The notes under the pieces are model-generated. The model was not told the DNA's origin. It made no database searches and worked only from the letters and a program-made list of their open reading frames with translations. From assembly GCF_028641065.1 (NCBI RefSeq), contig NC_073394.1, positions 41,230,001 through 41,294,000 on the forward strand: a stretch of 64,000 bases of DNA. Direction: 5' to 3'. The stretch is from Leucoraja erinacea (Eukaryota). Each line of letters begins with the position of its first letter. The stretch's first letter is position 1. The position numbers and the translations under genes were made by a program. Of the stretch, positions 1 to 36,350 are shown piece after piece.

Positions 1-280
1 ATGACTCTGTGACTATGACTATGTGCTGCCAGGTTTGATACACAGTGGGTGGTGGGTGACTGGAACGCGCCGCCAGGGTTGGTGGTGGAGGCAGATACGA
101 CAGTGACGTTTAAGAGGCTTTTGGATAGACACATGGATATGCTGGCAATATAGGGATATGGGTTATGTACAGGTAGATAAGTGATGGTCTTGGCATCATG
201 TTCAGCACAGACATTGTGGGCTGAAGGGCCTGTTCCTGTGCTGTACTGTTCTATGTTCTATGTTTCAGCAAAAGCATTAC

Positions 281-370
281 CTTCCTGTTTTACTGCACTT
301 GGATTTTCCAGATTCCTTGCTTGATTTTCATCCTCATCGGGACTTCCTGTGGTGACATCTGTAACCGGCG
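281..370 (-). CDS. NCR3LG1: NCR3LG1-like cytoplasmic 90-bp repeat exon D ([31 protein letters not shown])
   Basis: tttaatacag|CG ... GAAG|GTAATG; phase 1-1; open. Confidence 0.72.
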
Positions 371-3300
371 CTGTATTAAAACACAAGAAGGAGTCTCACA
401 TGTAATGATGCCAACACTGCCTGAGAAAATGTATCCCAACACATTCCGAGAAGCTGGATCACAGGACTTGAACTTTTGTAGTTTCCCATCAATAATTTAA
501 GAGCTCAAAAGAGAAGCCTTAACCTGACTAAAGATCTGCAATTTGCTGCTGCAAAAGTTACGTACAATTGTTATTTAATTAAATACATCAATCTAGACAT
601 CAAAATTCCACTGATCCCGTCCCTGCTGTAAGCCAAATGTTTACTAGACTTCAGAATGTACATTTCTGGGCTATTCACACTGGACAAAATGTCTCTCTGT
701 CAACCCAGGGAATATAATATGAAACAATTCAGCAAGTATGCTTAGAGTCATAGAGTCATAGAGTGATACAACTTGGAAACAGGCCCTTCGGCCCAACTTG
801 CCCACATCGACCAACATGTCCTAGCTACACTAGTCCCAGTTACCCAGATTTGGTCCATATCTGTTTTGATATATGTTTGCTTACAAAATAAGTAAACTAG
901 CACATAATATACAGAGAAAGATGGCTGCACACTCACTTGTGTTTGGATCAAAACAGGAATGATTTATTTCCAAGTCAAAGGTCTTGACTGATTTACTAAG
1001 CATGTGCGAGAATGAGTACAGCTCATACGCATAAGTTACATGGATATTGTCACATCCTTTCCTTTTTGACGTTTTGGGATTACATTTCCAACGATCCAAA
1101 ACAAAGTAAACTTAAACACTTTTCATAATATTACACCGTAGTAATATGGTTTAACAACAAAATAAAACAACTGTTCTGTCTTATCTCACAATTTCAATCA
1201 TAGTCACACTTGTGACATTTCAATAACATAAAATAATGTTCACATGCTATCTTCTCATAAGCATGTAGGTACATCACAACAAAACACATTACTTTGTGAC
1301 ATACTCGCCGTACCTCTCCGCCGGTCCGACAGCTCTTCCTGCCCTAGTCTTTGTGATGGTGTTTCTTTCAAAAGTGTCTTCTTTTCAGTGTGTACATTCT
1401 GTGCATCACTTCTAGTTTCTTCTCTTGTGCCACTTTGTTTTTGTTTAGATTTCTCTGTGTTATGAGTTTCACAAGTTGCATCTTTTTCTGGTGATGCTTG
1501 TTGTGTTGGTATATTTTGTGTCAGCTGAGGTTGCAAAGGTTTCTCAGTCTTCTCCGCGACTGGTGGTTTCTCAGGAGTTATGTGTGGGGGTAGTTCTCCG
1601 GTCTTCTTCAGATCCACTCTCGTCGGATTAGAAGTCCTGACTCTCTCGACTTCGTATGATCTCTCATCCNNNNNNNNNNNNNNNNNNNNNNNNNNNNNNN
1701 NNNNNNNNNNNNNNNNNNNNNNNNNNNNNNNNNNNNNNNNNNNNNNNNNNNNNNNNNNNNNNNNNNNNNCTGCCATCTGGTATCTTCTAGTTTATAGGGT
1801 TTGAGTCTTACGACATCACCTTCTTCCAGGATTGGCAGATCCTTGGCATGTTGGTTGTAGATTTTTGACTGTTTTCCTTGCAAATCCTTCATCTTTTTCC
1901 TCTCTTCTGTGAGTATCTCAGCACCACGCGGTTTGAGGAGGTTTTGAACCCTCGGTTGAATTTGCTAGGACTTGGGGAAGCTTTATGCAACATTTTCACA
2001 CAATATAAATTGTCCCCTCTCCAACTGTTATAATAATTCTTTTACCTTCATAGGTGAAACGGACTTGACGACAAACAGGGACGGACTTGACGACAAATTC
2101 TTTGCAGCCCAGATTCTGTTTTGCTTTTTTTTCTAGTTTAGGGGGTTTTGTTTTTCTCTTTTTTCTCATTCTTTTTTTTCTTTTTATCTTTTTGTTTTTA
2201 TATATACAAGTTCTCTTTTAAACACTTAACTATATTTACATAGAGACCGGGAGGTCTATACTCAATGTGTATTTTGACACTGGACTCATATTTAGGTTCT
2301 ACTTGTTATTTATGTAATCCTGATCCCTATGTATCAATATCATTGTTATGTTTATCATTATTTTAATTTTATTTTTTTGTTTTGTTTTTGTTTTTGAAAA
2401 AAACGAATAAAAAGATTATAAAAGCCAAAAAAAGAGGTTAGATGTAGTTGGAAGTGTCTTTCTTGTTCTCCTTCCATGTAATCTTTGTTCCAGACTACTG
2501 TTCACTCCCTCAAGTCCCACTTTCTCCCATGGTTGAACTGGGAGGTCATGGGGCATCAGAGTTTCTTTCTGATTCTGTTGTTCGTGCGTCCTGCAGGCTT
2601 CACAGTTTGAAATGAACTGCTTCACATCAGAGTTCATTCCGGGCCAGAAAATGCATTCTCTAGCACGTATGGGGGTTCCTTCCACTCCCAGGTGAGAGAT
2701 GTGGAGTGTCTTCTTCATATCTTTGCGTAGAGTGACAGGGATTACAACTCTCTCTCCTGTGAATAATAGGCCGTCTTGCACACTCAACTCGTCTCTGACG
2801 TTGAAGTATGGTGGTGCTGCCTCTGGGACTTCTGCCTTGTGATCTGGCCATACATTTTGGATTACTCTCTTAACTGTTTGTAGTGTTTCATCTTCCCTGA
2901 TATGGGCTTGGATGCGTTTGACCTTGTCCTCTCCCATGCTCAAGGACTCAACTACGTTGACATCAGTGAATCTGGTTGATCCTGTGGTGTCAGGGAGGTA
3001 TGCTCGGGAGAACATATCTGCTAGATGCATGTCGTTTCCCTTTACCCACTTGATCTTGATGTCATAGTGTAGCATCCTCATCATCATGCCATGGAGACGT
3101 CTTGATCCTCTATGCAGAGGCTTTTTGACAATGACTTCCAACGGCTTGTGGTCACTCTGAATGATCACTCTCTGTCCGTAGGTTTTACTGATGGAAGCGC
3201 TGGAGGGCAAACACTATTGCTAGTGCCTCCTTCTCAATCTGAACATATCTCTGCTCGGTTGGCGTCAATGCTCGACTCACATAGGACAGTGGTTGTCCTT

Positions 3301-6300
3301 TCTGCATAAGTGTTGCACCTAGACCTGCCTTGCATCACATTGTATGGCCAGCTGTTCATCTGGTGTGTAGTATGCAAGGATAGGTGCCGTTGTCAACAGA
3401 TCCTTGATCTTTGACATTGCCATGTCATGTTCTGATGACCATTCCCACTCTGTTTCCTTGTGGGTCAATCGCGTCAAAGGCTCGAATGTGTCCGACAACA
3501 TTGGCAGGAATCTTGCCAAGTAGTTTACACTGCCTTGTAATCTTTGGATTTCTGTTGGATTGGTTGGGTTGGGCATCTCTAGGATAGCTTGGATCTTCTT
3601 CCGATCCGGTTCCAGGCCACGATCTGTAACTATATGTCCTAAATGTGATACACGTAGTTTTCACTGCCGACTTCTTCCGGTTCAGCTTGATCGCTCTGTC
3701 TCTGTATCGCTGAAGAAGATCTTGCAGTCTTGCTTCGTGATTCCTTTCTGCATCTTCTCTGGTGTCCCCTACTCCGAATAGGATGATGCATCTGCAACAC
3801 ATTCCATTCCCTTTCATCCTTCTAGTGCTTGTTGCAGCTTCTTCTGGATGATCTCTGCACTTACTTTCTGTCCAAATGGCCACCTCTTCCAACGATATCT
3901 CACAAAAGGAGTGTTCATGATTGTTAGGAAATTGCTCTCCTCATCTAGTTCGCAGTGGAGGTATCCTGACTTCAGATCGAATCTGGAGAAAATCTTTGCC
4001 TTGGACAGCTCAGGGAGTACATCCTCTATGATAAGTAGTCTGTGGATCTCCCTTTTCAGGACTTTGTTGAGGGGTCTAGGATCTATGCAGAACCTCAACT
4101 CTGTTCTGTTCTTTTACTCCGTGACGACCAGTCTGCTACACAACTCAGTTGGTTCTTCGACTTGAGTCAAGATGTCCTGCTCGACCAGCTTCATGAGACC
4201 ATTCATGACCTTCTCTTTCATGGCTACAGATACCGGCTTTGCAGGACACTGTGATGGGGTCACATCCTCCAACCTAGTTACCAACTTGACCTTGCCAGGC
4301 AGTCTCCCAGATCTTTCCTCATCAAAGATATCTTTGTAGCTCTTGAGTAATGAGCCAGCCTCGCTAACAGCATTCAGGCTCTTGAAGTTCTCGTAGTGAA
4401 CCGTGATGAGTTTCATCAGTTGTGCAGCTTTGTCGCTCTGGAGCGGTGTGAGCCAGCCTTTCTCTACCACTATGAAGTGAACATGGTACTTCCTGTTGTT
4501 CCTCTCTTTCCGGAGTATGACTTTCGTCCTACCTTCGGCCAGCAGGTTGGATCCGTTGTATATCTTTAAGATGATTTTCTCTCGTCTAATGTCCTCTTTG
4601 TTGGGTACAAGATCCTTGGGAATCACATTAACACTAGCACCAGAGTCAATCTGAAACATGATGGCTTCTGTGCCGACCTGCATCTCAGCGAGTAGGCCTG
4701 AAGAGGAATTGTTTCCAGCTGCATTGATCTCAATGCAACTCACAAACTCTGTGTCAGAAATGGACGTTGTGTCAGATGTCTCTACGACCTTGTGCAGACC
4801 CCGTTTCTGCATGCTCTCCTTCCTCTACGTGCAGCAGCAGGTGAAGTGGTTTTGTCGTCCGCATCTGTTGCAGTCCTTCCCATACGCTGGACATTCCTCC
4901 TTCCTACATTTGTATCCTTGCACAAAACTTACACTTGACTAGTCCCTGATTCTTCCTCTGCGTAGGAAAATCAACCATCTTTTCCCTCGGTTTGAATCGT
5001 TCCACCTTGTGTATTGTCAGCTCTTCGCCGATGACCTGCATTCTTGCTGCTGTTACCTCCGAGGATCTACATATGTCCACAATCCCCTGCAGTGTCAGAT
5101 TCCTCTTCTGAAGGAGTGGCTTCCTAGTTGACTGGTCCTCAATACCAATGATGATGCGATCTCGAATGAGGCTTTCACTCAGGCACTCAGAAGTTGCATA
5201 AACATAGCAAGCTACTTCAGCTCTGCAACATACGATTCAATGCTTTCCCCTGATTTCTGGTCTCGTTTATTGAAAATGAATCTTTCATACGTTTCATTCA
5301 TCTCTCCTATGATGATGGTCGACATCTTGTGGATGATGACTTTCACATCACAGATATCTGCTGCCGTTTCGAATGGCAGGGTACTGAAGATTCGCAGTCC
5401 TTCCGGTCCAACAGAATGCAGGAATATTGCTTTTTGATACAGTTTCTCTTTCCTATCCAGTTCTGTTATCACTGCATAATTTTCATATATATGTCTGCTT
5501 ACAAAATAAGTAAACTAGTACATAATATACAGAGAAAGATGGCTGCACACACACTCGTGTTGGGATCAAAAATAGGAATGATTTATTTCCAAGTCAAAGG
5601 TCACTGACTGACTTACTGAGCATGTGCAAGAATGAGTACAGCTCATGCGCATGAATTACATGGATATTGTCACAATATCCCTCCAAACCTGTCCATGTAC
5701 CTGTCGAACAGTGTCTTAAATTTTGTGATAGTCCCCGTCTTAACTACCTCCTCTGGCAGCTTGTTCCATACACCCACCAAAAAGTTATCCCTTAGATCTT
5801 TTCCCTTTCACCTTAAACCTATGTCCTCTGGTTCTCAATTCACCTAATCTGGGCAAGAGACTCTGTGCCCTCTCATGATCCTATACACCTCTGTAAGATC
5901 ATTCATCATCCTCCTGCACTCCAAGGAATAGAGTCCCAGAGTACACAACCTCTCCCTGTAGCCCACACCCTCTAGTGTTCCGCACTATGACTCTGTGACT
6001 ATGACTATGTGTGGGGCAGGTTTTATACACAGAGGGTGGTGGGTGGTAGGTGGTGGGTGACTGGAACGTGCTGCCAGGGGTGGTGGTGGAGACAGATACG
6101 ATAATGGCATTTAAGAGACTTTTGGATAGACACATGAATATGCTGGGAATAGAGGGATATGGGTTATGTGCAGGTAGCTAATTGATGGACTTGGCATCAT
6201 GTTCAGCAGAGACATTGTGGGCTGAAGGGCCTGTTCCTGTGCTGTACTGTTCTATGTTCAATATTTCAGCAAAAGCATTACCTTCCTGTTTTCCTGCACT

Positions 6301-9300
6301 TTGATTTTCGAGATTCTCTTTTTCCATTTTACCCTCATCGGGACTTCCTGTGGTGACATATGAATCCGGCGCTGTATTAAAACACAGCAACGTGACAACA
6401 ACTGAACTTGAATGCATGTAGTCCCACAAATTTCACATATTTTTGCATTGACTTGAATATTATGTATAACTAGACCAAGTGCAGACCCGTTGGGTCTGCT
6501 CCCCCAACGCAGCCATTCCCTACCCGTAGCCCCCACGGGAGACGTGGTCCTCCAGCTCAAGCGGCTCAAGAATCAGCAGTGCGGCTGTTTTTAAATGGCG
6601 TCTTTGAGGCGAGATGCGGGCGCCAGCAGCCGTTATGGTCGCCGGCCAGCAGGAGTCGACAAAATGAGTGAGTGGGGGTGGCAACCACAAGACAGGCAGA
6701 AAGCCAGCAACCAGCAAGCAGGCACACAGTTTTAATATGATATCGATATAGATAGATAGATATTTGCAGGGCATAACTAAATCTATATCATGTACAGTCT
6801 GCAGACAATGACTGGACATCAAATGCCACTGAAAGGCCAACAATACTCTGGATGCTTTGAGAAATGTCGTACCTTCACTTGCTCCTGCATTTTGGGTATC
6901 CTGCCTCTCTGTCTCCTGTTCACCTTCATCACAACTCCCTGTGGCAGCATCTGACTTGGGCACTGCATTTAAACAAATGAAAGTCTCTCAGATGTGATAA
7001 TGGCAACACAGCCTGAGACAAGGTATATGAGAAGCTGGATCACACCTCAAAGAACTTTATTATTCTTCCCCACAGTGAAGTCTTCATCTGCCAAAGGATC
7101 TGTATCTCACTCCTGCAGAAAATACCTTAAACTATTCTTTTCTTTGAACCTCATTTGACTTTAGACTTGAGAGACTCAGCCCTTTGGCCCATCGAGTCCA
7201 TGCTGACCAGTGACCAGTACACTAACGCTATCCTACACACTAATGACTATTTACAATTTTACTTTTACCAAACACAAATTAGGAGTGGCACGATGGAGCA
7301 GTGGACGAGTTGTTGCCTTACAGCGCCAGTGACCCGGGATCGATTCTGACTATGGACACTGTCTGTATGGAGTTTGTACATTCTCCCCGTGACCAAGTGG
7401 GTTTTCTCCGGCTGCTGTGGTTTGCTCCCGCACTCCATAGATGTACAGGTTTGTAGGTTAATTAGCTTTGGTACAAACTGTCCCTGATGTGTGGGATAGT
7501 GCTATGTATGGGGATCACTGGTCGGCACGGACTGGGGAAGCCTGGAATACAAGAGATATTGTGGTTCCGGCCGGAGAAAAGGAGGAGTGGACCAGGAAGA
7601 AGAACTGGGATCACGTGACTCCCTGGAGGAGCATCGGGATGTAGGAGTTACTTCAGAAGGAAATTAGAATGAGGAAGAGAAGGCATGAGATCACTTTGGC
7701 TGAGAAGATTAAGGAGAATGCAAAGAGTTTTTATAAGTATATGAAAGGGAATAGAGAATTGGATTAGTATAGGATGCAGAATTGGCCTGAAGTTCATAAG
7801 TTCTTGGAGCAGAATTAGGCCATTCAGCCCATCAGTATTCACTGCCATTCAATGATGAATGAAGCAGAGGGTGGTGGTGGAAAACACAAGCAACCGTAGA
7901 TGCTGGTTTACATAAACATGGACACAAAGTGCTGGAGTAAGTGGTTCAAGTAGCATCTGTGGAAAACATGGATATGTCATATGAGGAAAGATTGAAAAGA
8001 CTAGGCTTGTATTCACTGGAGTTTAGAAGGATGAGGGGCTCTCTTATAGAAAAATCTACAATTATAAAAGGACTGGACAAGCTAGATGCAGGAAAAATGT
8101 TCCCAATGTTGGGCGAGTCCAGAACCAGGGGCCACAGTCTTAGAATAAAGGGGAGGTCATTTGAAACTGAGGTGAGAAAAAACTTTTTCACCCAGAGAGT
8201 TGTGAATTTATGGAATTCCCTGCCACAGTGGGCAGTGGAGACCAAGTCACTGGATGGATTTAATAGAGAGTTAGATAGAGCTCTAGGGGCTAGTGGAGTC
8301 AAGGGATATGGGGAGAAGGCAGGCACGGGTTATTGATAGGGGACGATCAGCCATGATCATACTGAATTGCGGTGCTGGGTCAATGGATTGGATGGCCTCC
8401 TCCTGCACCTATTTCTATGTTTCTATGTAATCTTTCGGGTTGGAACCTTTTTTGGACTTGAGACCCTGTCTAGTGGTGTGCCTCCCATTGCTGTTTGTTA
8501 TCTACATCAATGATTTAGAAGAGAATGACAAGGCATTATTAGATATTACCTGAGGTAACTTTGAGGACTGTAGAGTGCATTTCAGACCAAGTGGCATCTG
8601 GAGTGTTTGATTTGTGTTCAATATTGATCTGAGCGGCATCGTCCATGGATAAATCAGGCTGCACCTTAATACAGCAGTGAATGCGTGAAAGACCTGGATG
8701 GATAGTTTGTAATTCAGGTGGAAAATCCAAGGGTGGAGGGGTTTGCTTCATGACCAACAACAACTGGTGCAACCATAAGGATATTAAGATGCTTTCCTGT
8801 TCCTGCTCGTCGGACCTGGAGTATCTGACGATCTCATGCCGTCCATTCTACCTTCCCCTGGAGTTCAGCAGAGTCATCATAACAGCGGTCTACATACCAC
8901 CGCATGTGGACACCGACACGGCACTATAGGTCCTACATAATGTGTTATGTCAGCATCAGAACAAGCATCCTGACACGGCTATGGTGGTGGCTGGGGATTT
9001 TCATTGGGCGAACCTCAAAAACATTATGCCTAACTTCTGCCAACTCATCACTTGTGTTTCCAGTGGGGAAAGAACTTTGGACCACTGTTACACACCGTTC
9101 AAGAAAGGATACAAGGCCGTTTCTCTCCCTCCTTTTGGAAAATCTGACCGCGCTGCCAATTTTCTGCTGTCGGAGTATAAACAACGGATAGTACGGGAAG
9201 TGGCAGTGACGAAGGACGTAAAGCGGTGGTCTGACCATTTAGAGGCCATGCTACAGGATGCACTGAGTGACGTTGACTGGAATATGTTCCACTCAGGTTC

Positions 9301-12300
9301 CAGATACGTCAGTGAGTTTGCGGAAGCTGTCACAGACTTCATAGCAACACTAGCCGACAACATCATCCCCATGGTAAGGGTTAGCATCTTTCCTAACCAA
9401 CAACCCTGGGTGGACAGGTCTATTCGCGTTGCTTTGAATAATCGCACCGCTGCTAACAACTCCGGCCTGGCATCCGGCAACATGGATGACTACAAGGCAG
9501 AGTCCTACAAACTGCGGAGGGCGGTGAAGGACGCAAAAAGCAGGTACAGGGACAGGATGGAGTTGCAGCTGGAGCAGCGTGACACCAGATGCCTTTGGCA
9601 GGGGCTACGGACTATAACAAATTACCAGAGCAGACCCACTCAACCGGGAGTGGCGGCACCTCGTTAGCTGATGACCTGAACTCTTTCTATGCACGATTTG
9701 AGGTGACAACATTATCCCTAGCTCGCCGGCTAACAACAACAACATCATCAACGCGCTGGCTAACACGGCTGGAGTGAGTTCCACCGCTGGGGATGTACAC
9801 ACATTCTCAGTGTCTGAGCACGACATGAGGAGGGCTCTGATGCATGTGAACACGAGGAAAGCTGTTGGCCCAGATGGTATATCTGGGCAAGTACTAAAGT
9901 AGCTAATCAGCTAGCTCCAGTGTTCACCACAATATTCAACCTCTCCCTGGCCAAGTCCGTGGTCCCTGCCTGTGATCCACTATTGTCCCATTGTCTAAGA
10001 ATGCCTCTCCAGCCTGCTTGATGACTACCGACCAGTAGCCCTCACCTCACTGGTCATGAAATGCTTTGAGAGACTGATGAAGAACTACATCTGCGCCTTC
10101 CTCCCTCGTACCATGGACCCGCTGCAGTTCGCATACCGTCCAAACAGATCCATGGATGATGCGGTCTCCCAGGTTTCACACACCACTCTCTCTCACCTTG
10201 ACAGCCAGAAGGGGGGCTATGTGACGATGCTGTTCATTGATTTCAGTTCAGCTTTCAACACCATAGTCCCCACCAGACTTGCTGAGAAGCTGCTGGAACT
10301 GGGACTGAACACTCCCCTGTGTGCCTGGGTCCTGGACTTTCTCACCGCCAGGCACCAGGTGGTCAAGATGGGGAGACATACCTCCAACCCCCACACCCTG
10401 AACACAGGATCCCCCCAGGGTTGTGGCCTCAGCCCCCTACTGTACTCCCTGTACACACATGACTGTGTGGCCAGGTTCAGCTCCAACTCCATCATCAAGT
10501 TTGCTGATGACACTGTGTTGGTGGGCCTGATCTTCGATAACGATGAGAAGGTTTACCTGGAGGAGGTGGCTGATCTGGCACTCTGGTGTCAGGACAACAG
10601 TCTCCTCTTGAATGTCACAAAAACTAAGAAGCTGATTATGGACTTTAGAAGGACACAACAACTGAGAACGTACACACCACTGGGGATTAATGGGACTACT
10701 GTGGATAGGGCGAGCAGCTGTAAATAAATACCTGGGAGTCCACATCACAGAGGATCTGACATGGACAACATTCATTGCCAAACTGGTGAGAATGGCAAGG
10801 CAGAGCCTTTACCACCTCAGGCAGCTGAGGAAATTCAGATACTCTCTGAGGATCCTTCATTCCTTCTACTCTGGTGCTGTAGAAAGCATCCTGCCAGATA
10901 CATCTCCATCTGGTTTGGCAACAGCTCTGCCCAGGACAGGAAGGCTCTGCAGAGAGTAGTGCGTTCTGCCAAACACACCACGGGAACTACATCCACCCCC
11001 CCCCTTCAGGACCTATACACCAGGAGGTGCAGATCCAGAGCCAGCAGGATCATGAAGGACCCCTACCACCCCAGCAACGGACTGTTCCAGCAGCTGCGGT
11101 CAGGCAAACGCCTCCGCTGTCACACTGCGAAAACAGAGAGGATGAGATGCAGTTCCTTCCCACAGGCCATTAGGACTGTAAACTCTGATCTCATGCTGTT
11201 GCATCTACTTTTTTAAATGTAAATACTGGTTATGTTCTGTTCTTTCGTGTTGTTTTGCACAATCCCGTAAGCATTGCCACCCTCATTTCACTGGACATCT
11301 TGTATGAGTATGTGACAAATAAAGTTGACTTGATGTTTCAGTAAAAGCATTACCTTCCCATTTTCCTGCACTTTGATTTTCCAGATTCATTGCTTGCCTT
11401 TCGCCCTCATCGGGACTAATGTAGCTGGGACATGTTGGCCGGTGTGGGCAAGGTGGGCCGAAGGGCCTGTTTCCAAGCTGTATCATTGTATGACTGTTTG
11501 ATTATGAATGGCCAATTTCTATAACCTATGAACTTATGAACATGGAGAAAACCCGCACAGTCACAGAGAGAACGTGCAAACTCCATACAGACAGCACCCG
11601 TGGTTTTGTGCTAATGTTTCTAAACTTGGTTTAAAAGTTCATCTAATTGTGTGTGTCGTGGGAAGAATAGGAATCTTGTATTCGATATAATTAATCACCA
11701 TAATCAATTACCTCGTGCAGTTTGTGAGCCCGTCTTGGCGATAAGTGGTGTACGGTTTGGGTCTTCAACGTCCGTTGTATTTACCTGTCCTGAACAACAT
11801 AAACAAGACAATTAGCCGGGAAACAAGCTGACCAGGTGCCAGTTTAAAAAGTATAAAAATACACAGATCAATTCCAGCTTTCTGGACAATATATCTTTCT
11901 CTGGAATGCCAGAGGTTGAGGGGAGATCTGATGGAAGTAAATAAAATGATGAGAGACATAGATAGGGTAGACAGTCAGAATTTTCACTTTTTTTGTTGAT
12001 TGCTATAAGATGGAAAAGCGTTTACCTTTAAATTTCTTCTTCCAGGTATAAAATGCTATGCACACAACACAGAGAAATATGCTGATGCCACAGATGCCTC
12101 CGATAATCAGTCCAGTTTTTCCACGTTCTGTTAAAACAGGCATAGATCTATGAAAACGTGAATAATAAATATACTAGGCCATTTACAACATTCATCAGAG
12201 ACACTAGAATCTGCAGATGTTGGAATCTTGAACAAAACACAAAGTGCTGGAGGACTCAGTGGGTCAGGCAGCATCTGTGGAGGGAACATCACCTCTCCAT

Positions 12301-15300
12301 TCCTTCCACAGATGCTGCCTGACCCGTTCAGTTCCTTCAGCACTTTGATTTATGTACAATATTCCACAGAATGTATCACTAACTTATTCTACTTATCAGA
12401 TTGGTTTAATCCCTCATGGAATTGGTGTAGTTCTGGTCACCCCATAACATAAAGAATGTGGAGGCTTTGGAAAGCGTGCAGAAGAGGTTTATCAGAGCGC
12501 TTGCTTGGATTAGGGGGATCAGCTACACTGAGAGGTTGGACAGATTTGGATTGTTTTCTTTGGAATGACGGAAGTGGAGGGGAGAACTGATGGAAGTATA
12601 TACAATTGTGAGAGAAATAGATAAGGTGCAGTCAGAATATTTACCCAGGGTGTATTAGTGAGAATCTGGACAGCATAGTTTTAAGGTGAGAGAGTAAAGT
12701 TTAAACAAGATGTACAGGGCATGTTTTTAAACAGAGAGTGGATGCCGAGAATGCACTGCTATGTGTGGTGGAGGCAGATACGAACGATAGTGGCGTTTGG
12801 GAGGTTTATAAATAGACACATGGATATGCAGGGAATGGAGGGACATGTACCACACACAGGCAGAGAAGATGAGTTTATCTTGGCATCATGTTCAACACTG
12901 TGGGCCAAAGGGCCTGCTCCTGTGCTGTACTGTTCTAGGTTCTGTACTTAACTGGTACATATTGTGTTTATTTCCCGGGTGTGAAACAGCTGCAGCATTT
13001 AAGATTCCAAGGATTATACATATCATCACCATGATGCAGATTATAATTAAAGAGTAATTTGATTTCTGGTCTTTGAATAAAAGAAGCAATAGATTGACTT
13101 AAATGGCCAGGAATGTGTTAATAATCCTTGATTTGATGAATTGTATTGAATTGAATTGAGAGATTGAATTGATTGATCAGACCCTAAAGCCCACCAAGAC
13201 CATGCTGACCATCGATCACCTGTTCACACTAGTTCTATGTTATCCCACTTTCTCATCTTCTCCCTACAAACTAGGGGCAATTTACAGAGGGCCAATTAAC
13301 CTACAATCCTGCACGTCCTTGTGATGCTGGAGCACCCGGAGGAAACCCACGTGGTCACAGGGAGCACGGGCAAACTCCACACAGACGGCACCCGTGGTCA
13401 GGATCGAACCTCGGTCTCTGGAGCCATGAGGCAGCAACTCTACTTGATGCAATTCTGTGCTGCCCCAGACTCTGGGAATGATCAGTGGTCCTTTATGTAC
13501 AAGTTTCTAGACATATGGCAATCTGCAAAGTTGTATATATCTAGATTAATTTTCTAGAACCTGACTTGTTAGACATAACCAGACAAACATTGAACCGGTG
13601 GTGATTCAACTGTGGAACACTGCTCATTGCCCTGAATCCATTTTGCCGCTGAGCCACACACTGACTCCATCAGTGAAACAGTTATCTCCAGAGCTGAGGG
13701 TCCTGATGCACTTCACATCTGACCCCTCACTTTATTCATGGATGATGTACATCAGCGCTCATTACAAAAGGCTGACACCTCTAATTATTTAATTATTAAA
13801 TGTGTATTGAATCATGAGAGGAATAGATGGGGTGGATGCACAGAGACTTTTACCCCCCAGCCAAGGGGAATCAAGAACCAGGGGACATAGGTGAGTGGGG
13901 AAAGATAGGAAGCTGAGGGGAAACGGTCACATTCAGAGGGCGGTGGGTAAATGGAACAAGCTGCCAGAGGAGGGAGTTGGGGCTGGTACTATAACAGCAT
14001 TTAAAATATTTTTGTACAGTACATGGATAGGAAAAGTTTAGAGGGATAAGGGCCAAATGCTTAGATAAGTTCAAATTCATATGATAGGAGCAGAATTAGG
14101 CAATTCAGACTAATTCATCAAGTCTACTCCACCTTTCAATTATGGCTGATCTATCTTTCCCACCCAATCCCAATCTCCTAGCTTCTCCCCATAACCCCGA
14201 CACCCGTACTAATCAAGAATCCGAAAATCTGCCTTAAAAATGCCCAATGACTTGACCTCCACAGTCGTCTGTGGCAATGAATTCCACAGATTCACCGCCC
14301 TCTGACTAAAGAAATTCCTCCTCATCTGTCTAAAGGTGCGTCCTTGATTCTGAGGCTGTAGCCTCTGGTCCTAGACTCTCGCACTGTGTTCAACTCACCT
14401 GGCACGATGAGAGAAGGTTCTATTGTGAGACCATTCAGTAATGTTTGATGTGTCACAACGCATCTGTATTGATCACCATTATCCTTCAATGTCGGGTGAA
14501 TCTTCAGTTCACTCTCAGCATTGAAAGTGCGATCACCATTGGCAGTGATTTGAGTTGTATAGTTAGTCATGGAAACATTTCTTCTTCCTGTTATCTTCAC
14601 CCAGGTGATCTTTATCGGTCGAGGGTAAAATCCACTGGCTTTGCATGTCAGAGAAACTTCTGAACCTTTCTCAGTTGTGATGGACTGTGTCAATATAACG
14701 TTTGGTCGAGCTGCATTAAAAAATGTACATTTAAATATTAAAGGAAGAGACTGCAGGTGCTGGAGATAGAAAACAAAAGCAGACAATACTGGAAGCACTA
14801 AGCAGGTCCAAAACATTGCCAGGGAATGGAACAGGGTCATTTCTTCAGGCTGGGGTCTCTTCATCAGAGTTAGGAATGTTAGAACCATTAGCATCTGAAG
14901 ACATTAATATGATAAAGTAGGCACATGGTGTGCTTGCATTCATTGGTTGGGGCTTTGAGTATAAGAGTCAGGAAGTCATGATTCAGCTTCATGGGACTTT
15001 GTTTCACCTGCATTTAGACTGTTGTGGGCAGTTCTGTTTCACGTCAGTTTAGTTTATTGTCACATGTAAAGAGGTACATAAAATACTTTGGTTGCATGCT
15101 AACCAGTCAGTGGAAAGACAATACATGATTACATCAAACCATTCACAGTGTACAGATGCATGATAAGGGAATTACCCCTACTGCAAAATAAAGCCAGTAA
15201 AGTCAGATTAAAGATAGTCCAAAGGTCACGAATGAAGTAGATAGTAGTTCAGGACTACTCTCCACTTGTGGTAGGGTGGTTCTGCTGCCTGATAATAGCT

Positions 15301-21300: not shown

Positions 21301-24300
21301 CATAGAGGGAGTGCAGAGAAGGTTCACCAGACTGATTCCTGGGATGTCAGGACTGTCTCTTATGAAGAAAGACTGGATAGACTTGGTTTATACTCTCTAG
21401 AATTTAGGAGACTGAGAGGGGATCTTATAGAAACTTACAAAATTCTTAAGGGATTGGACAGGCTAGATGCAGGAAGATTGTTCCCGATGTTGCGGAAGTC
21501 CAGGACAAGGGGTCACAGCTTAAGGATAAGGGGGAAATCCTTTAAAACCGAGATGAGGAGAACTTTTTTTCACACAGAGAGTGGTGAATCTCTGGAACTC
21601 TCTGCCACAGAGGGTAGTTGAGGCCAGTTCATTGGCTATATTTAAGAGGGAGTTGGATGTGGCCCTTGTGGCCAAGGGGATCAGAGGGTATGGAGAGAAG
21701 GCAGGTACGGGATACTGAGTTGGATGATCAGCCATGATCATATTAAATGGCGGTGCAGGCTCGAAGGGCCGAATGGCCTACTCCTGCACCTAATTTCTAT
21801 GTTTCTATGTTTCTATATTTGTGTGTAATGTATGGCTGCAGAAACGGCATTTCGTTTGGACCTTAAGGGGTCCAAATGACAATTAAATATTTCTGTTGCT
21901 ATTCTAAAGGGGAATTTTAAAAGGAGAGCAATCCTCTTTCTGCATTATTATCCAGTCTACTTGTTGAGCAGACTTGTCCAACCCATGAATTGCATTTTTG
22001 ATCTCATATCTTCAAAGTGTAACATTTCCGACATGTTTGAAATCCACATTTTGAGCGTTGGTGTGGGTGCATTTTTCCAGAATTTAAGTATAAGTTTGTT
22101 GCCGTTATTAAGCCATAATTAAGGAGACATTTTTGAAACAAAGTCAGCTTACAGTCTTCCATTGATCCAAAGATAATCAGTTCTGTATTGGGGTTCAATT
22201 TTATTTTAAATAATTTTGTAAAAATTCACAAGATGTCATTCCAAAATGTATGAAGTTTTATGCAAGAGACAAAAGAGTGTACTATAATAGCATTTTGAGA
22301 TAAGCATTTATCACATATGGGAGAAACATTTGGAAAAATGTTTTATTCAGTTTGGTTTTTGAGTAATATAATCTGTGTAAAATTTTAAATTGAATTGTTA
22401 TCTTACATTAATCGAGCATTTATGTACATATAGCAAGTATTTTTCCCATCTGTCATTCGGAATTTTTATAGATAATTCTTGTTCCCAGTCCATTCTAATT
22501 GCCTCTGACGATGGTATTTCTATATTTAAAATGATGTTATACAAATATGATATTAAATTACTTGATTCTGCTTTTCTGTTCATTCCTTCATCTAATAGAT
22601 CTGAGGTTAAGGTTTGATATTCTTGTGTGTGTTTCTTCAAGTAATCTCGGATTTGTAGGTATTTGAAATATTGATTGCTTTTCAGGTTGTATTTTAGTTG
22701 TAGTTGTTGAAATGATAAAAGTTTTCCCATTTCATACATGTCTCCAAGCGTTTTAATTCCTATTCTTTCCCTATGGGTAAACGTTTTATCAATAATAGAT
22801 GGTTTAAGTGACGGGTTATTAACTATTGGAGAAAGAAGCGATAGATTTCTTAATTTGAGAGTTAATTTTATTTGTTTCCAAATTCGTATTGTACTATGAA
22901 TAATTGGATTCTTCTTGTATATTGTATTATTCCGTTTTAATCGGGGAGAGATGGATCGCTCCTATATTAAAAGGAGAGCAATCCTCTTTCTGCATTATTA
23001 TCCAGTCTACTTGTTGAGCAGACTTGTCCAACCAATGAATTGCATTTTTGATGTTCACTGCCCAATAATAATACACAAAATTGGGGCGGTGTCAGTCCGC
23101 GCCGCGTCCCGGCGCGCGGCGCGCCGCGGCGCGGCGCGCGGCCTTCGCGCGCGGGGGCGCCGCGGGCGCTCGGCGCGGCGCGCGCGCGCGCGGCGCGCGC
23201 GGCGCGGGCGGCCGCGCGCGGCGCGCGCTAGCGCGGGCGGCGGCGCGCGGCGCGCGCGGCCCGGGCGCGCGCGCGCGCGCCGGCTCCGGGGGGCGCGCGC
23301 GCGCTGCGCGGCGGCGCGGCGCCGCGCGCGCGCGGCGCGCGCGCGCGCGCGCGGCGCGCGCGCGGCGCGCGCGCGCGCGCGGGCCAAATTCCGCGCGCGG
23401 GCGCGCGCGCGCGCGCCCGCGCGCGGCGCCCGCGCGCGCGCGCGCGCGCGCGCGCGGCCGCCGCGCGCGCGCGCGCGCGCGCGCGGCGCGCGGCGCGCGC
23501 GGCGCCGCGCGCGCGCGCGGCGGCGCGCGCCGCGCCGCGCGCCGCGCGGCCCGCGCGCGCGCGGCGCGCGGCCGCGCGCGCGCGCGCGCGCGCGGCGCGC
23601 GCGCGCGCGCCCCGCCGCGCGCGCCGCCGGCGCGCGCCCGCGGCGCGCGCGGGGCGCGCGCGCGCGCGCGCGCGCGGGCGCGCCGCTCGGCGCGCGCGGC
23701 CGGCGCGCGCGGGCGGGCGCGCGGCGCGCGCGGCGCGCCGCGCGCGCGGCGCCGGCCGCGCCGCGCGCGCGCGCGCGCGCGCGCGGCGCGCCGCGCGCGC
23801 GCGCGGGGGCGCCGCGTCGCGCGCCGCGGGCGCGCGCGCCGCGCGCGCGGCCGCGGCGCGCCGCGGCGCCCGCGCGCGCGCGGCCGCGCGCCGGGCGAAT
23901 GCGCCCCGCCGCGCGCGCCGCGCGCGCGCGGCGCGCGCGGGGGCGCGGCGCGCGCGCGCGCGCGCCGGCCGCGGCGCGCGCGCGCGGCCCGCGCGCGGCC
24001 GCGGGCGCGGGGCGGCGTGAGCCATTGACCGGCGGGCGCGGGCGCCGGGCGGGCGGGCGCGCGCGCCGGGCGCGCCCGGCGCGTTCCTATTGGGCGGCCC
24101 ATATGAAGCGCGGGGAGCGCCCGCCGGCGGCCGCAGCCGCGGCGGGCGGCGCGCGGCGGTGGGGGCGGGGGCGCAGTTATTAAGATGGGCGCAGGCATTT
24201 GGAAAGTGGCGCGGGGGACGGCGGCGTCAGCATGGATTTACGTATGAGGGAATTTTGCAATAAAAAGTAAGTTTGCATGACACTAAAGATTTAAATTTAG

Positions 24301-36300: not shown

Positions 36301-36350
36301 CCTGATGCTGAAATAAATGAGACCACACTGCAAAGAGTCAGAATGTTCAT
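281..36350 (-). CDS. NCR3LG1: B7-H6 / natural cytotoxicity triggering receptor 3 ligand 1-like gene, spliced: 36350-36302, 26609-26277, 14710-14399, 12127-12026, 6962-6873, 6371-6282, 370-281; 3' end lies outside the window
   Basis: All seven exons have canonical AG/GT boundaries and phase-1 junctions and join into one open frame: signal peptide-IgV-IgC1-TM-acidic repeat tail. Motifs [28 protein letters not shown] and [15 protein letters not shown] resemble human B7-H6 as recalled ([43 protein letters not shown]). Orthology versus paralogy not established. Confidence 0.82.
1670..1769. other. Assembly gap (100 N)
   Basis: Run of N. Confidence 1.
1947..2430 (+). mobile_element. Probable L1/Tx1-like 3' UTR fragment inserted in the Gypsy integrase
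   Basis: T-rich segment ending AATAAA plus an A-rich tail; interrupts the integrase frame (..PTTSNL / LLKPRG..). Confidence 0.5.
6282..6371 (-). CDS. NCR3LG1: NCR3LG1-like cytoplasmic 90-bp repeat exon C ([31 protein letters not shown])
   Basis: tttaatacag|CG ... GAAG|GTAATG; phase 1-1; open. Confidence 0.72.
6470..6760 (-). mobile_element. Non-autonomous Helitron (~290 bp)
   Basis: Minus strand A|TCTATC...ATTAAAA start; terminal hairpin GCAGACCC-AAC-GGGTCTGC (6481-6499) followed 7 nt later by CTAG|T; no TSD. Confidence 0.75.
6873..6962 (-). CDS. NCR3LG1: NCR3LG1-like cytoplasmic 90-bp repeat exon B ([31 protein letters not shown])
   Basis: aaatgcag|TG ... GAAG|GTACGA; phase 1-1; homologous to exons C and D. 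Confidence 0.7.
7284..7535 (+). mobile_element. tRNA-derived SINE
   Basis: A/B-box-like head (ggcacgatggagcagtgg...gggatcgattc) and body gtttgtacattctccccgtgacc shared with other copies in the window. Confidence 0.7.
7972..8430 (+). mobile_element. CR1 LINE 3' fragment
   Basis: [18 protein letters not shown]...[16 protein letters not shown]-terminus; TTTCTATG tail. Confidence 0.9.
8670..11333 (+). mobile_element. Rex1/Babar-type LINE, APE endonuclease plus RT, frameshifted
   Basis: GGGVCF, VVAGDF, TLDHCY (APE); [30 protein letters not shown] (RT); tail gacaaataaagttgacttga. Confidence 0.88.
11354..11417 (-). pseudogene. Truncated repeat exon A (..[22 protein letters not shown]), acceptor half missing
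   Basis: Donor GAAG|GTAATG and the last 64 bp match exons C and D; homology stops at 11417, where a retroelement 3'-tail sequence begins. Confidence 0.7.
12026..12127 (-). CDS. NCR3LG1: NCR3LG1-like transmembrane exon (102 bp): [34 protein letters not shown]
   Basis: Read directly (not in the ORF track): acceptor gttttaacag|AA, donor AAAG|GTAAAC, phase 1-1, ~22 hydrophobic residues followed by a KKKFK stop-transfer. Confidence 0.85.
12225..12365. repeat. Inverted repeat of Penelope terminal sequence (hairpin remnant)
   Basis: caaagtgctg...gggtcaggcagcatctgtgga mirrored by tccacagatgctgcctgaccc...cagcactttg. Confidence 0.7.
12950..13070 (-). other. Candidate alternative transmembrane-like exon ([33 protein letters not shown]...)
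   Basis: Polypyrimidine tract and acceptor cttcttttattcaaag|AC in phase 1 with the IgC1 donor; strongly hydrophobic; no strong phase-1 donor found, so the 3' end is uncertain. Confidence 0.4.
13190..13470 (-). mobile_element. tRNA-derived SINE
   Basis: Reverse complement of the SINE body and head seen at 7284 and 35878. Confidence 0.7.
14399..14710 (-). CDS. NCR3LG1: NCR3LG1-like IgC1-domain exon (312 bp)
   Basis: Acceptor aatgcag|CT, donor CCAG|GTGAGT; [14 protein letters not shown]...[11 protein letters not shown]1-set signature. Confidence 0.92.
15745..16092 (+). mobile_element. Rex1-type LINE 3' fragment
   Basis: [10 protein letters not shown]...[18 protein letters not shown]...RFRDSFFP. 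Confidence 0.75.
16100..16632 (-). mobile_element. CR1 LINE 3' fragment
   Basis: [14 protein letters not shown]...[14 protein letters not shown]; (TATTGTC)n tail. Confidence 0.9.
17187..17655 (+). mobile_element. Rex1-type LINE 3' fragment
   Basis: [10 protein letters not shown]...RFRNSYFP; tail gacaataaactcacttgaac..ttgaac. Confidence 0.78.
18062..18903 (+). mobile_element. Unclassified GC-rich retroelement 3' portion with terminal stem-loop; its tail resumes at 21817-21890
   Basis: Sharp compositional boundaries; ends ttggacc-tcaagg-ggtccaa-atgac(aattaaa), similar to Rex-like 3' tails. Confidence 0.45.
18900..21815 (+). mobile_element. CR1 LINE, 5'-truncated, ORF2 (RT) nearly intact
   Basis: ORFs 19140-20192, 20765-21400 and 21256-21621 give [34 protein letters not shown]; (TTTCTATG)n tail. 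Confidence 0.95.
20184..20799 (-). mobile_element. Second CR1 subfamily 3' fragment nested antisense in the CR1 above
   Basis: 7-bp duplication CTCAGTA (20177-20183, 20800-20806); (TATGGTTA)n tail. Confidence 0.9.
23095..24230. repeat. ~1.1 kb near-pure C/G low-complexity tract, probably a sequencing or consensus artefact
   Basis: Irregular (CG)n with almost no A/T, embedded in AT-rich L1 ORF2; the right flank is also degraded. Confidence 0.8.
24870..25935 (-). mobile_element. CR1 LINE, APE endonuclease region
   Basis: [34 protein letters not shown]. Confidence 0.85.
26277..26609 (-). CDS. NCR3LG1: NCR3LG1-like IgV-domain exon (333 bp)
   Basis: Acceptor ttttttag|AT, donor TTAG|GTAAGA; [11 protein letters not shown]...VTLKC...VIW...DEGMYTC with canonical V-set Cys/Trp/D-x-G-x-Y-x-C. 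Confidence 0.92.
26705..27125. repeat. Degenerate GGGAACAC/ATGGAC minisatellite (duplication copy 1)
   Basis: Irregular tandem units related to the 21-bp array at 30390-31165. Confidence 0.85.
27640..29877 (+). mobile_element. Ty3/Gypsy LTR retrotransposon 3' half (RT end, RNase H, integrase, PPT, 3' LTR)
   Basis: [57 protein letters not shown]; PPT 29635-29650; LTR starting TGTAGCGG at 29651 with AATAAA at ~29830. Confidence 0.92.
30305..31215. repeat. Minisatellite, 21-bp unit GGGAACATGGACTGGGATCAC (homogeneous core ~30390-31165)
   Basis: Over 30 near-identical tandem units are visible. Confidence 0.97.
32119..33388 (-). mobile_element. CR1 LINE (RT), 5'-truncated
   Basis: ORF 32641-33468 [24 protein letters not shown]; TATGGTTA tail. 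Confidence 0.93.
34370..34840 (+). mobile_element. Penelope-like element 3' fragment with terminal repeat
   Basis: End of the GIY-YIG ORF (DLSVLG.LHCQSE...LIFRLGSL) and the same 3' terminus as the element at 51846-53251. Confidence 0.8.
34737..34772 (+). ncRNA. Minimal type I hammerhead ribozyme motif (Penelope-associated)
   Basis: CUGAAGA - stem II AGGG/CCCU - GAAA - CGUC; predicted cleavage after GUC at 34768. Confidence 0.65.
35160..35570 (-). mobile_element. CR1-like LINE 3' fragment
   Basis: ORF 35265-35549 [15 protein letters not shown]. Confidence 0.8.
35876..36182 (+). mobile_element. tRNA-derived SINE
   Basis: tggtggcgcaacggtagagttgctgccttacagcgc head and shared body; ctaaacta tail. 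Confidence 0.75.
36302..36350 (-). CDS. NCR3LG1: NCR3LG1-like exon 1: signal peptide [16 protein letters not shown]
   Basis: ATG at 36350, hydrophobic 16-mer, phase-1 donor TCAG|GTGAAG matching the phase-1 IgV acceptor; non-repetitive island. Confidence 0.75.

Follow-up and report, generated by a model that had tools for sequence, protein, structure and literature searches.

A B7-H6-like gene of the little skate is followed by thirteen symmetric 90-bp exons that may encode a length-variable cytoplasmic tail

Organization of the locus

The stretch of DNA analyzed here (the window, 64,000 nucleotides) is C18:41230001-41294000 of the little skate, Leucoraja erinacea, where C18 denotes contig NC_073394.1 of assembly GCF_028641065.1. 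It carries on its minus strand a B7-family gene, apparently B7-H6 (NCR3LG1)-like, followed by the first members of an array of 90-bp exons. The features placed in the window are listed below. Array exons are named by type (B, C or D) and copy number, so that exon C1 is distinct from the immunoglobulin (Ig) C1 domain; TM stands for transmembrane, LTR for long terminal repeat and aa for amino acid.

36302..36350, minus strand: leader (signal peptide) coding exon with a phase 1 donor; equals exactly the first 16 aa of XP_055505900.1
26277..26609, minus strand: IgV exon, 333 bp, phase 1-1; Pfam V-set, 40.5 bits, above cut-off
14399..14710, minus strand: IgC1 exon, 312 bp, phase 1-1; Pfam C1-set, 56 bits
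12026..12127, minus strand: TM exon, 102 bp, phase 1-1, with a basic stop-transfer stretch at its end
11712..11789, minus strand: E0, 78 bp, the exon that opens the tail; phase 1-1 when spliced at its donor
11354..11417, minus strand: exon A, the 3′ 64 bp of a C/D-type unit, with a donor and no acceptor (replaced by a repeat)
8720..11333, plus strand: degraded non-LTR retrotransposon in antisense orientation to the gene, lying where the NCBI annotation divides the locus; boundaries approximate
8550..8718, minus strand: I/F, the 3′ relic of a degenerate C1-like exon
6873..6962, minus strand: exon B1, 90 bp, type B (4 array copies); in both NCBI isoforms read
6282..6371, minus strand: exon C1, 90 bp, type C (3 intact copies); skipped by both NCBI isoforms read
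869..5674, minus strand: broken LTR retrotransposon in the C1-D1 intron, so labeled from a reading of its sequence
281..370, minus strand: exon D1, 90 bp, type D (6 copies)

The leader, IgV, IgC and TM segments lie on separate exons joined by phase 1 introns, as in B7-family genes, and a structure search with the IgV exon returned B7-family structures as its top matches. The IgV exon is 100% identical to XP_055505900.1, a 293-aa L. erinacea protein whose end is reproduced when the E0 donor is read through (two further residues, then a stop). The TM exon was found in one copy only in a genome search. The original prediction, made from the sequence of the window, had placed the TM exon and four pieces of the 90-bp unit correctly: those at 281–370, 6282–6371 and 6873–6962 are indeed 90 bp long, open, of phase 1-1 and bounded by AG and GT, and that at 11354–11417 is truncated. 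It had missed E0 and I/F, which lie between the TM exon and the array.

The element at 8720–11333, which we take to be a long interspersed nuclear element (LINE), has reverse-transcriptase-like open frames and further copies in the region. It occupies the place of the lost 5′ part of I/F, the intact counterpart of which is a 432-bp exon (C18:41329694-41330125) in an orphan fragment described below. The remaining I/F sequence contains the ATG (8646) at which a second NCBI protein, made up of repeats only, begins, and a cryptic AG within it would yield an in-frame 144-bp exon (8550–8693). The LTRs of the element at 869–5674 (869–1054 and 5487–5674) are 92% alike, and this element was duplicated together with the exons. 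In the V-C1 intron, about 1.1 kb of near-pure C/G low-complexity sequence within a LINE (23100–24200) resembles an assembly artifact.

Extent and distribution of the exon array

A profile search of 464 kb around the window yielded 19 strong copies of the unit, namely 13 intact exons, 4 copies truncated at the 5′ end and 2 orphans on the other strand. Three of the intact exons lie in the window and 10 to its left, the leftmost at C18:41180725; that there might be more on this side had been suggested in the original prediction. The array is 60.7 kb long, its exon types succeed one another as B C D B C B C D B D D D D, and every full-length exon (13/13) is bounded by AG and GT, 90 bp long, of phase 1-1 and without a stop codon. 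Many small in-frame exons stand in tandem beyond the TM exon, as in arrays of the chicken BG type. The array grew at this locus by duplication of multi-exon blocks, which are 93–98% alike; since exons D4 and D5 are identical within blocks 98% alike, some copies could be uncollapsed haplotypes.

Genome searches with single exons gave a compact distribution. The C exon with its flanks had 40 scored matches, of which 15 were at the locus and the other 25 matched the intronic flank only. The B exon had 6 matches, 5 in the array (4 exons and an intron piece) and 1 broken copy on a small contig, C232. All exon matches except this broken copy fell within about 210 kb of C18, and the 90-bp unit was not spread across many chromosomes, contrary to what a dispersed repeat family would show. 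When the unit profile was compared with 1.84 billion protein representatives, three matches were obtained, two of them strong and both from skates; the third, a cod protein (E=1e-4), was compositional and was dropped. As judged by these searches, the exon array is restricted to skates and specific to this locus.

Fragments of the gene were also seen elsewhere. An inverted orphan tail fragment (C18:41328605-41337590, plus strand) contains a copy of E0 identical over 141 bp, an intact I/F and a frameshifted D-type exon, and no TM exon was found upstream of it; a second broken D-type copy, at C18:41391290, lies in a tandem duplicate of this fragment. The broken B-type exon on C232 (10113–10214) may carry assembly errors. 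Two unplaced contigs (C1692:19722-59794 and C543:31040-31243) bear V exons 83–92% identical to that of the window, one intact and the others broken, and tblastn of these contigs detected no C1, TM or tail exons beside them.

Relationship between the array and the membrane protein

The reading that we favor, and to which we give somewhat better than an even chance, is that the B7-H6-like leader-V-C1-TM gene continues into the 13 symmetric 90-bp exons and encodes a long, predicted-disordered, acidic cytoplasmic tail of variable length. We regard the joining of TM exon and array as likely for skates generally and as evenly balanced for the little skate, in which the tail may be detached from the membrane protein.

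A joined arrangement is annotated in XP_078271721.1, an uncharacterized 691-aa protein of Rhinoraja longicauda, with the layout V-C1-TM-E0-F-B-I/F-B followed by five C/D-type units. Its TM is 76–78% identical to that encoded in the window, one of its internal exons is 72% identical to E0, and the B and C/D unit types are common to both skates. In the little skate, E0 is in frame both with B1 and with the cryptic AG at 8693, and the join would use one of these two acceptors, the short-tailed read-through form coexisting with it.

Several observations weigh against such a join. NCBI splits the little skate locus, ending XP_055505900.1 at E0 and starting a repeat-only gene, LOC129705962, in F; a V-exon search for proteins of 194–2000 aa returned the 293-aa form only; and the Rhinoraja join is predicted by a single annotation model. 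I/F has lost its natural acceptor, where the LINE now lies, and the cryptic AG looks weak. RNA mapping to positions 200–14800, with one raw RNA run of a relative (found with the C1 exon) and three contig runs as the sample, was dominated by repeats and gave no exon junction among the best 15 joints listed, which is not evidence either way. The lineage-specific modular tail of the original prediction is supported in part, by the skate-restricted array and the joined Rhinoraja model, and not by the NCBI models of the little skate, which end the membrane protein at E0 and treat the array as a gene of its own.

For LOC129705962, NCBI has no fewer than 8 protein variants, one cluster containing 7 and another 1; isoforms X7 and X3 were read. 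Eleven of the 13 exons occur in each, one isoform having C2 where the other has C3, and neither has C1. C-type exons are thus used as cassettes in the two isoforms, which agrees with the proposal that splicing tunes the tail. Both also include exonized transposon pieces: three G exons, one H exon, and a terminal exon that lies within the remnant of a Tc1/DDE-like transposase element. These pieces lie on the minus strand at C18:41194214, 41187962, 41185648, 41212450 and 41168809, and the G exons (135 bp) come from a young high-copy repeat.

The main rival, to which we attach a modest probability, is that the gene underwent fission in the lineage of the little skate: insertion of the LINE would have cut an ancestral V-C1-TM-array gene into a 293-aa short-tailed ligand and a separately transcribed, TM-less cytosolic repeat protein starting from the ATG in F. 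Fission matches the NCBI models and the at least eight repeat-only variants, the little skate has ATG where the Rhinoraja model implies an internal acceptor, and the antisense LINE sits at the split. However, E0 has kept its canonical donor, all downstream exons are in phase with E0, and no AATAAA or ATTAAA occurs within 1.5 kb past the E0 stop. Automatic annotation, moreover, often splits genes at long repeat-filled introns, which we count against fission.

If array and membrane protein are joined, exon skipping and read-through of donors would determine how long the tail is, together with unequal crossing-over. Because the exons are symmetric, they can be skipped, duplicated or lost without a frameshift, and read-through of a donor soon reaches a stop (after 2–7 residues for E0, F and D-type exons), so that tails of about 28 to about 480 residues are possible.

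Conservation of frame and change of sequence

Parsimony on a fixed tree assigns 79 changes to the 13 exons, none of them an indel or a stop, whereas 6.9 indels (P ~0.001) and 3.3 stops (P ~0.035) are expected from the flanks. The three copies that lie outside the gene have all lost the frame, at lengths of 85, 79 and 85 bp. Frame and splice sites are kept in the array, and the sequence is not: nonsynonymous changes outnumber synonymous ones on shallow branches (47 versus 5, p=0.006) and overall (66 versus 11), and exon divergence is 8.5% versus 6.0% for the flanks. Synonymous sites change at about half the flanking-intron rate (p=0.07). The D-type exons change fastest, their nonsynonymous rate being 0.25 versus 0.098 in the flanks (about 2.5 times faster).

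Two caveats apply to these comparisons. The test of constraint is biased, because intact exons were picked and the 4 truncated copies omitted, and the pooled nonsynonymous rate equals that of the flanks (0.174 versus 0.179), in an analysis whose B-flank alignment looks inflated. Given this equality, positive selection is shown at most for the D-type exons, and strong positive selection across the whole array was not accepted. The simplest reading of these comparisons is that selection keeps frame and splicing, with amino-acid change that would be neutral to mildly diversifying.

We think it improbable that tandem duplication left the array behind as a decaying by-product whose exons are transcribed and spliced but useless as protein. 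An exon divergence no lower than that of the flanks would fit such a by-product, as would the 4 truncated copies and the NCBI variants with exonized transposon pieces (G, H and the last exon). Against it stand the 79 changes free of indels and stops, which include the deep split between B and C/D types, the decay that the orphan copies did undergo, and the persistence of open units in a second skate genus.

The motifs that had been proposed as phosphosites (TGSPDE and a tyrosine) did not survive this analysis: among the 13 units, exact TGSPDE occurs in 3, Ser-Pro in 7 and Tyr in 2, counts that rule out conserved phosphosite or tyrosine signaling. Amino acids change at the neutral rate or faster, so conservation of the array does not lie in the phosphosite motif that had been proposed. 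Thr-Gly alone is invariant across 20 units of the two skates, 7 of which, those of Rhinoraja, were located by that very motif. An N-glycosylation sequon is present in 5/13 little skate units and 1/7 Rhinoraja units. In composition the units are 89% disorder-promoting, 0.5% aromatic, 22% Asp plus Glu and 9% hydrophobic, and they are predicted to be disordered. No pattern resembling an immunoreceptor tyrosine-based inhibitory motif (ITIM) was found in the tails of XP_055505900.1, isoforms X7 and X3, or XP_078271721.1, where Tyr stands in no ITIM context, and the Gag family was absent among the Pfam matches to the repeat protein (isoform X7), all of which were below cut-off.

Family identity and paralogs

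Per V-C pair, structure matches of the window protein reached 97 bits with human B7-H6 versus 56–59 bits with single-pair CD276 chains; 4-Ig CD276 chains reached 112 bits only via two summed pairs. The second domain best fits the C1-set, and the nearest relatives are named NCR3LG1-like, while the NCBI name of the window protein is CD276-like. By structure matches and the names of relatives, we classify the gene as a probable B7-H6-like V-C1-TM gene. The place expected for B7-H6 is beside KCNJ11, as we presume from human synteny. In the little skate, KCNJ11 lies at C18:20.217 Mb and is adjoined by a separate V-C1-TM gene (C18:20.18-20.20 Mb), and the window gene (C18 41.24-41.27 Mb) is 21 Mb away, within a cluster of at least four paralogs (C18 41.2-41.5 Mb). 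The window gene is a paralog and not the KCNJ11-linked B7-H6, so that the B7-H6-like ligand originally proposed stands as regards its V-C1-TM structure and its best match, human B7-H6, and fails as regards orthology.

The ectodomain of the window protein clusters with those of stingray and manta proteins that have short tails (support 97/98; V 61–65% and C1 54% identity). Between the little skate and XP_078271721.1, in contrast, TM, E0 and I are 72–83% identical, versus 47% for V and 34% for C1, and no close counterpart of the Rhinoraja V-C1 was found in the little skate genome (best V, 47%). Because TM, E0 and I are near to XP_078271721.1 and V and C1 are far from it, the tail module has likely moved between paralogs, although a chimeric annotation of XP_078271721.1 would look like module transfer too.

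C1-set exons beyond the TM exon

Four other TM-bearing B7-H6-like genes were examined in the little skate, and all four have C1-like exons beyond the TM exon (5, 2, 5 and 6), in layouts read from exon order and not from transcripts:

C18:20184496-20203194: KCNJ11-linked B7-H6-like gene
C18:41365590-41378781: B7-H6-like gene
C18:41423004-41445931: B7-H6-like gene
C18:41491278-41516943: B7-H6-like gene

This exon order, V-C1-TM plus 2–6 C1-set-like exons, would apparently encode cytoplasmic Ig chains, possibly of wider interest than the array itself. Several of these exons lack the canonical Cys. The Pfam C1-set cut-off was passed by 4 of the 7 post-TM exons tested, the 3 misses being I-type exons, for which Pfam gave no match. 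I/F is 29–30% identical to the first post-TM exon of two neighbors, and a profile that we built from 5 post-TM C1 exons scored 21.8 bits with Rhinoraja I (best of 300 shuffles, 7.4) and 14.0 bits with the little skate I copy (best shuffle, 11.1). AlphaFold, run on the I/F exon with a 3-row alignment, gave a predicted local distance difference test score (pLDDT) of 38.7, which is unusable.

In a neighboring paralog, the C1 chain is followed by a tandem row of six 45-bp exons of phase 1-1 (C18:41451054-41466437, plus strand), which encode an acidic 15-aa unit that contains Tyr in five of them. Alignment of the 45-bp and 90-bp units was no better than that of shuffles (p 0.07-0.64), and the 45-bp exons are apparently a second exon array, unrelated to the first.

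These layouts suggest that the tail module (TM-E0-I/F-repeats) derives from an ancestral post-TM C1-set chain, of which I/F would be a relic; the repeats may have taken over from the C1 chain in skates, and the module may have recombined onto different ectodomains. More tentatively, we entertain the broader idea that the cytoplasmic module of skate B7-H6 is exchangeable. An ancestral chain of C1 domains on the inner side, V-C1-TM-(C1)n, would in the subtelomeric cluster have given way to, or been lengthened by, arrays of very small acidic exons on two independent occasions (the 90-bp array described here and the 45-bp array of the neighbor), been swapped between ectodomain paralogs, and diversified under pathogen pressure as the splice-tunable tail of a natural killer (NK) cell ligand.

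The repeats could instead be mainly extracellular: if the symmetric TM exon were skipped, a secreted V-C1 form would result, which the repeats would extend by an acidic stretch rich in Ser and Thr. We give this little credence. The TM exon is of phase 1-1, five of the 13 units bear the sequon, a manta ortholog (Mobula birostris isoform X2) is annotated without a TM exon and predicted to be soluble, and the paralogs have post-TM exons of the C1-set, a fold usual outside cells. However, the sole joined model, XP_078271721.1, includes the TM, a single one of its 7 units has a sequon, and several of the paralogs' post-TM C1 exons are without canonical Cys, as cytoplasmic domains might be. That the unit is a dispersed repeat family merely resembling an exon, an idea encouraged by the high-copy repeats in its flanks, is refuted within the limits of the searches by the confinement of all exon matches but one broken copy to about 210 kb of C18, the G exon, a true repeat, having given 1259 candidates by contrast.

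Possible role of the tail and comparison with known systems

Returning to the cytoplasmic tail that we favor, the sequence of the units is free to change and their frame is not, so size and charge are most likely what matters in its action. It would be a sequence-tolerant disordered spacer of tunable size and charge, and not a string of docking motifs, and might modulate how long a putative NKp30-type ligand stays at the surface, how it clusters or how it is trafficked. Rapid change could help such a tail to evade pathogen proteins that clear these ligands from the surface. Human herpesviruses down-regulate B7-H6, and human cytomegalovirus proteins route it to lysosomes, according to PMC6514059; the latter makes pathogen pressure a plausible driver.

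Human B7-H6 (NCR3LG1) is a type I protein with an IgV and IgC ectodomain, in common with the skate gene, and with a Gag-like tail containing ITIM, SH2 and SH3 motifs (PMC2715080), of a kind not seen in the skate. The stingray and manta NCR3LG1-like proteins have the ectodomains closest to that of the window gene, and their NCBI models have an unrelated-looking TM (18–28%) and tails of about 10 aa or less without repeats. XP_078271721.1, like the window gene, has TM, E0, I/F, and B and C/D units, here in one annotated protein; unlike it, it has 7 units versus 13, an intact I domain and a different V-C1 paralog. With the Gag-like human tail, the stingray stubs, and the skate post-TM C1 chains and array, the B7-H6 tail looks like a repeatedly replaced module, which offers a natural series in which the function of B7-H6 tails can be asked after and, in the array, a clear example in which frame and splicing, not sequence, are under selection. 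In the main-text portions available of the literature searched, including PMC12227049, PMC10751288 and PMC11599192, neither the 90-bp array nor a chain of post-TM C1 domains was found described for elasmobranch B7-H6.

The architecture itself, which the author of the original prediction did not recognize from described B7-family genes, has a precedent. Chicken BG genes, called homologs of the B7-family butyrophilins, have tails built from 27–37 exons of 21 nt in tandem, and both intron read-through and hybrid genes are described for them (PMC5938342 and PMC4046983), so the principle of an exon-array tail was already known. Like the skate gene, they encode IgV-type surface proteins in an expanding and contracting cluster, with tails (putative in the skate) of many tandem small exons, split first codons, variable exon number, intron read-through giving truncated tails, and hybrids formed by recombination. 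The BG unit, however, is a 21-nt heptad forming a coiled coil, whereas the skate unit is 90 nt, polar, 9% hydrophobic and predicted to be disordered, and BG proteins have one V domain, whereas the skate gene has V plus C1 and is B7-H6-like. We infer that the two arrays arose independently. If so, the skate array would be a second independent tail of the B7/butyrophilin family grown from tandem exons, in this case disordered, and in the oldest lineage with adaptive immunity.

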